Origin: Escherichia coli
GTDB taxonomy: Bacteria; Pseudomonadota; Gammaproteobacteria; Enterobacterales; Enterobacteriaceae
NCBI RefSeq assembly: GCF_045037415.1
Contig: NZ_CP173438.1
Strand: one strand, 5' to 3'
DNA: 64,000 nucleotides
Below, in pieces: positions 1 through 547 of this stretch. Position numbers: made by a program. The first letter of the stretch is position 1; every line of letters begins with the position of its first letter.

Positions 1-547
1 CTTTCCGAGCGTAAAGAGACACTGGGTGATGTGACGCACCGTATTCTGACAGTGCCGATTGCGCAGGACCAGGTGGGGATGTATTACCAGCAGCCAGGGC
101 AACAACTGGCAACCTGGATTGTTCCGCCGGGACAATACTTCATGATGGGCGACAACCGCGACAACAGCGCGGACAGTCGTTACTGGGGCTTTGTGCCTGA
201 AGCGAATCTGGTCGGTCGGGCAACGGCTATCTGGATGAGCTTCGATAAGCAAGAAGGCGAATGGCCGACAGGTGTGCGCTTAAGTCGCATTGGCGGTATC
301 CATTAATAGCCATCTTCGTTCACGTTGTCGCCGTTATGGCGACAACGTGAATTATTTATGAGATAAATCTCCCGTGGCTAACGACATCCCCCGTCGTTGT
401 GTATAGAATATTCCCCCGAAGTTTAAGGTTGGCACCTCCAGGTTGCCACGGCACACGAAACAGCGTTGGTCCCCATATACCGGTAAACTGAAACTGCAGT
501 GAAGCAGTTAGCCGAGCCATGTATATCAGGTCTGTTTCGTGTGCTGA

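Follow-up and report, generated by a model that had tools for sequence, protein, structure and literature searches.

The palindrome between lepB and rnc of Escherichia coli as the probable stem-loop of the lepA-lepB terminator

To which of its two neighbours does the perfect palindrome separating lepB from rnc in Escherichia coli belong? The window, i.e. the whole stretch of 64,000 nucleotides analysed here, starts inside lepB, the gene of signal peptidase I, and continues on the + strand with rnc, era, recO and pdxJ. According to the ORF list and the RefSeq annotation (identical E. coli sequence; b2568 in MG1655), the 3' part of the lepB coding sequence occupies positions 1-306 of the + strand and ends with the stop codon TAA at 304-306, which is followed by an in-frame TAG. 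The same sources place the coding sequence of rnc, which encodes RNase III, at 578-1258 on the + strand with its ATG at 578. An earlier note, made from the sequence alone, had pointed to the palindrome at 321-349 and had offered two accounts of it, namely a terminator of lepB or a part of the structured rnc leader which is cleaved by RNase III. Of 5426 complete E. coli genomes, 5425 contain a match to bases 200-700 of the window, in many cases at 100%. Compared with K-12 MG1655, in which the locus lies on the minus strand (window position x = 2704641 - MG1655 coordinate), the window differs at four positions over 280-600, none of which falls within 300-500, and there are no insertions or deletions. 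Since 300-500 is identical in K-12 MG1655, data obtained with K-12 are directly applicable to the hairpin.

The palindrome is present as quoted in the earlier note. Its 12-bp arms are indeed perfect, but the complementarity extends two pairs further, resulting in a hairpin at 319-351 of the + strand whose arms, 319-332 (TTCACGTTGTCGCC) and 338-351 (GGCGACAACGTGAA), form 14 perfect pairs, eight of them G-C, and enclose the 5-nt loop GTTAT (333-337). A wobble between G318 and U352 provides a possible fifteenth pair. Directly 3' of the stem follows TTATTTAT, or, in a longer reading of the downstream tail, TTATTTATGAG. A perfect stem of 14-15 bp is longer than those of typical intrinsic terminators. 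The hairpin is a real feature, beyond chance. Its RNA fold amounts to about -26 kcal/mol (z = -6.1 versus dinucleotide shuffles, none of 200 being as stable), and its pairs form with a probability of about 1.0 in each of the contexts folded, the RNA either ending at 359 or running to 640. By chance, about 0.0014 perfect hairpins of this kind (arms of 14 bp or more, loop of 3-8 nt) would be expected in 64 kb; none occurred in 100 trials with Markov-1 random sequences, and the window contains only two. Within E. coli the element is single-copy (median one place per genome) and confined to chromosomes. The spacer of 12 nt between stop codon and hairpin (307-318, + strand) is variable and unconserved between genera; a 1-nt insertion in it is common within E. 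coli, and the hairpin is unchanged in both variant strains which were read. The only Rfam match of 319-351, to mir-2001, was rejected as a chance hit of a generic hairpin (20 bits versus a gathering score of 74, E = 0.26).

We consider the palindrome to be the stem-loop of an intrinsic terminator of the lepA-lepB operon and assign to this reading a probability of about 0.9. RNA polymerase coming from the lepA promoter would transcribe the G+C-rich hairpin (319-351) and subsequently the U-rich tail UUAUUUAU (352-359, + strand), an interrupted tract in which six of eight residues are U. The hairpin would form in the nascent RNA behind the polymerase, the weak rU:dA hybrid would yield, and most transcripts would be released at about 357-360. 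Retained at the end of the released RNA, the hairpin may protect the 3' end of the lepAB mRNA from 3'-to-5' exonucleases. Likewise, the terminator would shield the rnc promoter and the autoregulated rnc-era-recO unit from upstream transcription, albeit incompletely.

Published maps of transcript ends place the in vivo 3' ends of lepA-lepB RNA at 357-360 of the + strand, the two reported MG1655 coordinates being 2704284 (window 357) and 2704282 (window 359). The first of them derives from SMRT-Cappable-seq, in which full-length 5'-triphosphate (primary) transcripts are sequenced; Supplementary Data 1 of this study lists a transcript from TSS 2707209 to TTS 2704284 comprising b2569|b2568, i.e. 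lepA|lepB (PMC6131387). In the corresponding row 655 reads are counted at the TSS, 66 reads end at the TTS, 71 end within the next 50 bp and 28 pass, with a median read-through past the lepB TTS of 109 nt (PMC6131387). The row of TTS 2704284 occurs once and is taken to belong to the rich-medium sheet, standing past the place where M9 reverse-strand rows would fall. The site is typed 'novelTTS', meaning that it is absent from the experimentally known terminators compared in that study (PMC6131387). The second coordinate is found in the TRS data, where terminus 2704282 (range 2704277-2704289) is assigned to lepB with the class 'Primary' and is depicted with this very hairpin (-26.2 kcal/mol; PMC10687069). 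It appears in three rows of two supplementary files, its scores being 0.90, 0.93 and 0.95 on a scale on which 1 denotes no local read-through (PMC10687069). The mapped 3' ends are thus located 6-8 nt past the last pair of the stem. Both ends, together with the covariation described below, support the earlier note in its suggestion of a lepB terminator. In the TRS comparison of coding sequences with 3' UTRs, the 3' UTR of lepB is a non-outlier (PMC10687069), and there is therefore no sign of a small RNA derived from it.

Other collections are silent about this end. In the part of the Term-seq lists of Adams 2021 available to us (PMC7815308) there is no 3' end at 27042xx or 27043xx and no lepB entry, the TERMITe supplements contain no lepB entry, and text searches of the literature on lepB combined with terminator terms returned nothing relevant. 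We read the absence of the site from the Term-seq lists as a matter of thresholding, yet it is a real gap. Two public datasets, of 2018 and of 2023, already contain both the hairpin and its 3' end, so that nothing about them is new here. We would like to note that lepA-started transcripts have a second end at MG1655 2705019 (minus strand), inside lepB and upstream of the window, which is represented by 45 reads and leaves only lepA fully covered (PMC6131387); this suggests a partial stop or a processing site early in lepB.

The terminator is leaky, a minority of the lepA-started transcripts running into rnc. An operon variant b2569|b2568|b2567, likewise starting at TSS 2707209, is tabulated besides the shorter one (PMC6131387), and some transcripts started at lepA therefore read into rnc. 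Dividing the 28 passing reads by the sum of 66, 71 and 28 yields a read-through beyond 50 bp of about 17%, which rises to as much as about 30% by another division of the counts. In its partial termination the lepB hairpin resembles most E. coli sites of the SMRT-Cappable-seq study, about 75% of the termination sites defined there showing this behaviour (PMC6131387).

Stable stem, U-rich tract, in vivo 3' ends, position at the end of an operon and sense strand are features of intrinsic terminators which are all found at the hairpin. As in canonical examples, a G+C-rich stem-loop followed by a U-rich stretch lies past the last stop codon of the operon, RNA 3' ends fall inside the U stretch and the structure is kept by covariation. 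In contrast to them, two A residues interrupt the U-tract, and an upstream A-tract is lacking, so that the signal is one-directional. The interruption of the U-tract fits the observed leakiness. A motif scan marked 318-352 together with the tail TATTTATGAG as terminator-like on the + strand only, a match which alone counts little since the scan is weak, finding one site where 1.3 are expected in shuffles. Judged from its geometry and its conservation, release at this site would be Rho-independent.

For the conservation of the hairpin we relied on a DNA-pattern scan with one genome per species, for which 27 conserved nucleotides of rncO served as the key. It returned 26 loci from the Escherichia/Citrobacter side only; they belong to many species of Citrobacter, to Escherichia albertii and other Escherichia, to Superficieibacter, Pseudocitrobacter, Trabulsiella and Intestinirhabdus, and to other Enterobacteriaceae. 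A hairpin is found a few nucleotides past the lepB stop codon in each of the 24 relatives with usable sequence, which represent about eight genera. The arms read TTTACGTTGCCGTC and GGCGGCAACGTAAA in E. albertii, CACCTTGCCGCC and GGCGGCAAGGTG in Superficieibacter, and TTCATGCTGTCATC and GATGACAGCATGAA in Enterobacteriaceae bacterium 89, while Pseudocitrobacter possesses an unrelated stem at the same position (ATGCGGGGGCA and TGCCTCCGCAT). The tail is nearly invariant between genera: AATTATTT (350-357 in the window) follows the hairpin in all 24 relatives but one, which has AAATATTT. In its perfection the E. coli palindrome is exceptional among these relatives.

Covariation was assessed by projecting the structure of the window onto 25 sequences aligned with MAFFT. 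In this alignment 92.3% of the cells are paired, and sliding the partner by 1-3 columns lowers pairing to 31-55%. The unpaired cells stem mostly from the rows of Pseudocitrobacter and Intestinirhabdus, whose own hairpins are shifted relative to the aligned columns. In every one of the 25 sequences the + strand RNA forms a hairpin between -19.8 and -26.0 kcal/mol; that of the - strand RNA ranges from about -8 to -25 kcal/mol. Changes on both sides occur at 8 of 15 pairs with a score reached by none of 500 shuffles, and the + strand is the more stable one in 18 of the 25 sequences owing to G·U pairs (Wilcoxon p = 4e-4), the 25 sequences being related, so that the shuffle and the Wilcoxon figures overstate independence. 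As G·U pairs stabilise the RNA of the + strand only, selection acts on the lepB-sense RNA and not on a DNA palindrome. The site therewith illustrates clearly how covariation maintains a terminator and how G·U pairs disclose the selected strand. Within lepB itself, GGCGACAAC (148-156; it encodes Gly-Asp-Asn within GDNRDNS, a conserved motif of signal peptidase I) equals the first nine nucleotides of the 3' arm of the hairpin. An antiterminator pairing of the 5' arm with this stretch was rejected, as the codons of the relatives vary synonymously and are unrelated to their hairpins, which makes the identity a coincidence.

The region between the hairpin and the start of rnc transcription (352-417) holds the U-tract and the rnc promoter. 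A consensus scan predicts the latter at 381-409 of the + strand, with the -35 hexamer ACGACA at 381-386, a spacer of 17 nt and the -10 hexamer TAGAAT at 404-409. Both hexamers lie inside blocks which are nearly invariant between genera, and their position fits the rnc TSS, mapped by SMRT-Cappable-seq to MG1655 2704223, i.e. window 418 (PMC6131387). At 418-632 of the + strand follows rncO, the leader by which RNase III is autoregulated, as recognised by the full model 1-214 of Rfam RF00552. The cmscan match (255.5 bits, E = 8e-61) is not truncated, and its first base is the rnc TSS. For rncO as the operator in the rnc leader through which RNase III regulates itself, PMC5371410 cites Matsunaga et al. 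1996. The hairpin lies outside the rncO model, 67 nt upstream of its start. Both are conserved RNA structures which share the intergenic region and the strand; they differ in that rncO begins at the rnc TSS, the promoter separating the two. The Rfam match and the published TSS rule out the hairpin as a part of rncO. The second account of the earlier note, according to which the palindrome might belong to the RNase III-cleaved rnc leader, is not supported: the rncO model covers 418-632, the rnc TSS maps to 418 and the promoter-like pair at 381-409 lies in between. The note would have taken an rnc TSS downstream of 349, combined with no RNase III cleavage near the hairpin, as a refutation; as to the TSS, its published position 418 does lie downstream of 349. 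Its leader of roughly 230 nt after the palindrome is correct as a distance, as 228 nt separate the palindrome from the rnc ATG, but only 418-577 (160 nt) are leader.

Several further observations concern this promoter and leader region. In 350-421, compared over about eight genera, the invariant or nearly invariant blocks are AATTATTT (-68 to -61 relative to TSS 418), ATAAAT (-55 to -50), CTAACGACATCC in the -35 region and GTTGTGTATAGAATATTCCCCCGAAG, which comprises the -10 hexamer, a C-rich discriminator and the TSS. By analogy, the AT-rich upstream region and the C-rich discriminator of the rnc promoter may resemble those of promoters under growth-rate or stringent control. Inside rncO, two independent published datasets contain a strong RNA 3' end at window 457-460 (MG1655 2704184 and 2704181-2), which is situated in the 5' strand of the long rncO stem, 121 nt upstream of the rnc ATG. 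In the accessible part of the Adams 2021 Term-seq lists 2704184 (window 457) is included as not Rho-dependent (PMC7815308). This end probably reflects the known cleavage of the rnc leader by RNase III. The median lepB read-through length of 109 nt ends near these 3' ends.

Leakiness and conservation of the tail can also be taken together. Accordingly, the site might act as a leaky valve through which a set fraction of lepA-lepB transcription continues into rnc-era, with the tail doubling as a UP-like element, a proposal which we regard as rather unlikely. If it were true, two units of ribosome biogenesis would be coupled and the read-through RNA would come under the control of rncO. In the same way AATTATTT and ATAAAT (-68 to -50) would serve as U-tract and at the same time as upstream element of the rnc promoter, and such a dual use would explain why these blocks are conserved above the sequence of the stem. 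Read as a UP element, 359-380 agrees with the distal-subsite consensus, compared by eye, at only about 7 of 11 positions.

Transcription might also end further downstream, by Rho or otherwise, with 3'-to-5' exonucleases trimming the RNA back to the hairpin as a protective cap. Mapped ends 6-8 nt past the stem and inside a U-rich stretch, however, display the geometry of intrinsic termination, and a mere exonuclease block would not need the near invariance of AATTATTT in 24 relatives. Moreover, the tail of the terminator and the -35 hexamer of rnc are about 20-30 nt apart, which leaves little room for a separate downstream termination region. Trimming would nonetheless account for the 71 reads which end within 50 bp downstream of the main lepB end (PMC6131387), would sit well with the imperfect U-tract and has a precedent in the ends trimmed to stem-loops which PMC6061677 reports for Rho-dependent transcripts of E. 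coli. On balance, we hold it to be very improbable.

A role in the action of RNase III appears highly improbable as well. Here, the hairpin would be a part of the rnc leader, or a site of RNase III serving autoregulation or the cutting of lepAB-rnc read-through RNA after the fashion of lambda sib. In the retroregulation by lambda sib and tI, a terminator hairpin turns into an RNase III site only in read-through transcripts. The likeness consists in a terminator hairpin which is present also in read-through RNA, in our case at a locus linked to RNase III, and in an additional outer helix predicted for the read-through RNA of E. coli, in which 307-313 would pair with 374-380. In contrast to the lambda system, this outer helix does not stack coaxially on the hairpin, nor is it conserved, its pairing of 49% being equal to that of shuffles and slid controls, and the stable 3' ends keep the hairpin intact. 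A longer sib-like RNase III site formed by way of the outer helix, although predicted in E. coli, was rejected on account of this lack of conservation.

The hairpin and rncO can share one RNA, as is evident from the variant b2569|b2568|b2567 with its 28 passing reads (PMC6131387). Yet the complete rncO model at 418-632 excludes the hairpin, and transcripts of the rnc promoter, starting at 418, are made without it. With 14-16 bp its helix exceeds the minimum of about 11 bp quoted for RNase III substrates (PMC3867540) but remains well short of the 22 bp of an ideal substrate (about two turns, 20-22 bp), length alone not being decisive. Two further observations from the TRS data speak against cleavage. 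The abundant 3' ends in rnc+ cells fall downstream of the intact hairpin, and read starts per position are higher in the lepB 3' UTR (about 3.3-3.4) than in the coding sequence (0.74-0.82; PMC10687069), whereas a stem that is cleaved efficiently should show the reverse.

The chance that the palindrome acts as double-stranded DNA, be it as the site of a dimeric regulator of the rnc promoter or as a repeated or mobile palindrome such as REP, is practically negligible: although it is a perfect DNA palindrome upstream of a promoter in this E. coli, with its centre about 83 bp upstream of the rnc TSS, its relatives keep the base-pairing and not the sequence, one genus having a wholly different stem, in most of them T:G positions in the arms pair as G·U in RNA of the + strand but interrupt the palindrome at the DNA level and weaken the fold of the - strand RNA, and the element, which is single-copy, chromosomal and present in 5425 of the 5426 E. 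coli genomes, does not behave as a dispersed repeat of the REP kind.

With the palindrome taken as the lepA-lepB terminator, the annotation of the locus would comprise a lepA-lepB mRNA ending at 357-360 and an rnc-era-recO unit with a promoter of its own, a start at 418 and a leader of 160 nt. When rnc or lepB is engineered, 319-360 is best left intact, which avoids polar or read-through effects on the autoregulated, essential downstream genes (era). Beyond correct annotation the site, an ordinary one, has little significance.

In one strain, E. coli FXCREC035 (NZ_CM135826.1, a urinary isolate), the IS30-family element ISApl1 is located at 3557-4845 between the lepB terminator and rnc. The insertion corresponds to about window 363, right after TTATTTATGAG and in the AT-rich sequence that precedes the rnc -35 hexamer; neither the hairpin nor rnc is disrupted. 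On the minus strand, a promoter-like pair at 351-380 (TAGCCA, 18 nt, AATAAT), found by consensus matching only, would aim back through the hairpin and run antisense to lepB.

Elsewhere in the window, just one more perfect hairpin reaches an arm length of 14 bp or above, at 45379-45416 (GCAATAAAAAACCGCC and GGCGGTTTTTTATTGC). It contains an A-tract and a T-tract inside its arms and looks like a bidirectional terminator; two more perfect hairpins lie beside it, at 45267-45298 and 45415-45440. Perfect hairpins with arms of 10-12 bp, for instance AACAAAGCCGGG/CCCGGCTTTGTT, are present at 13474-13502, 17602-17627 and 20430-20453. Altogether, hairpins with arms of at least 10 bp far exceed in the window the 0.6 expected by chance.
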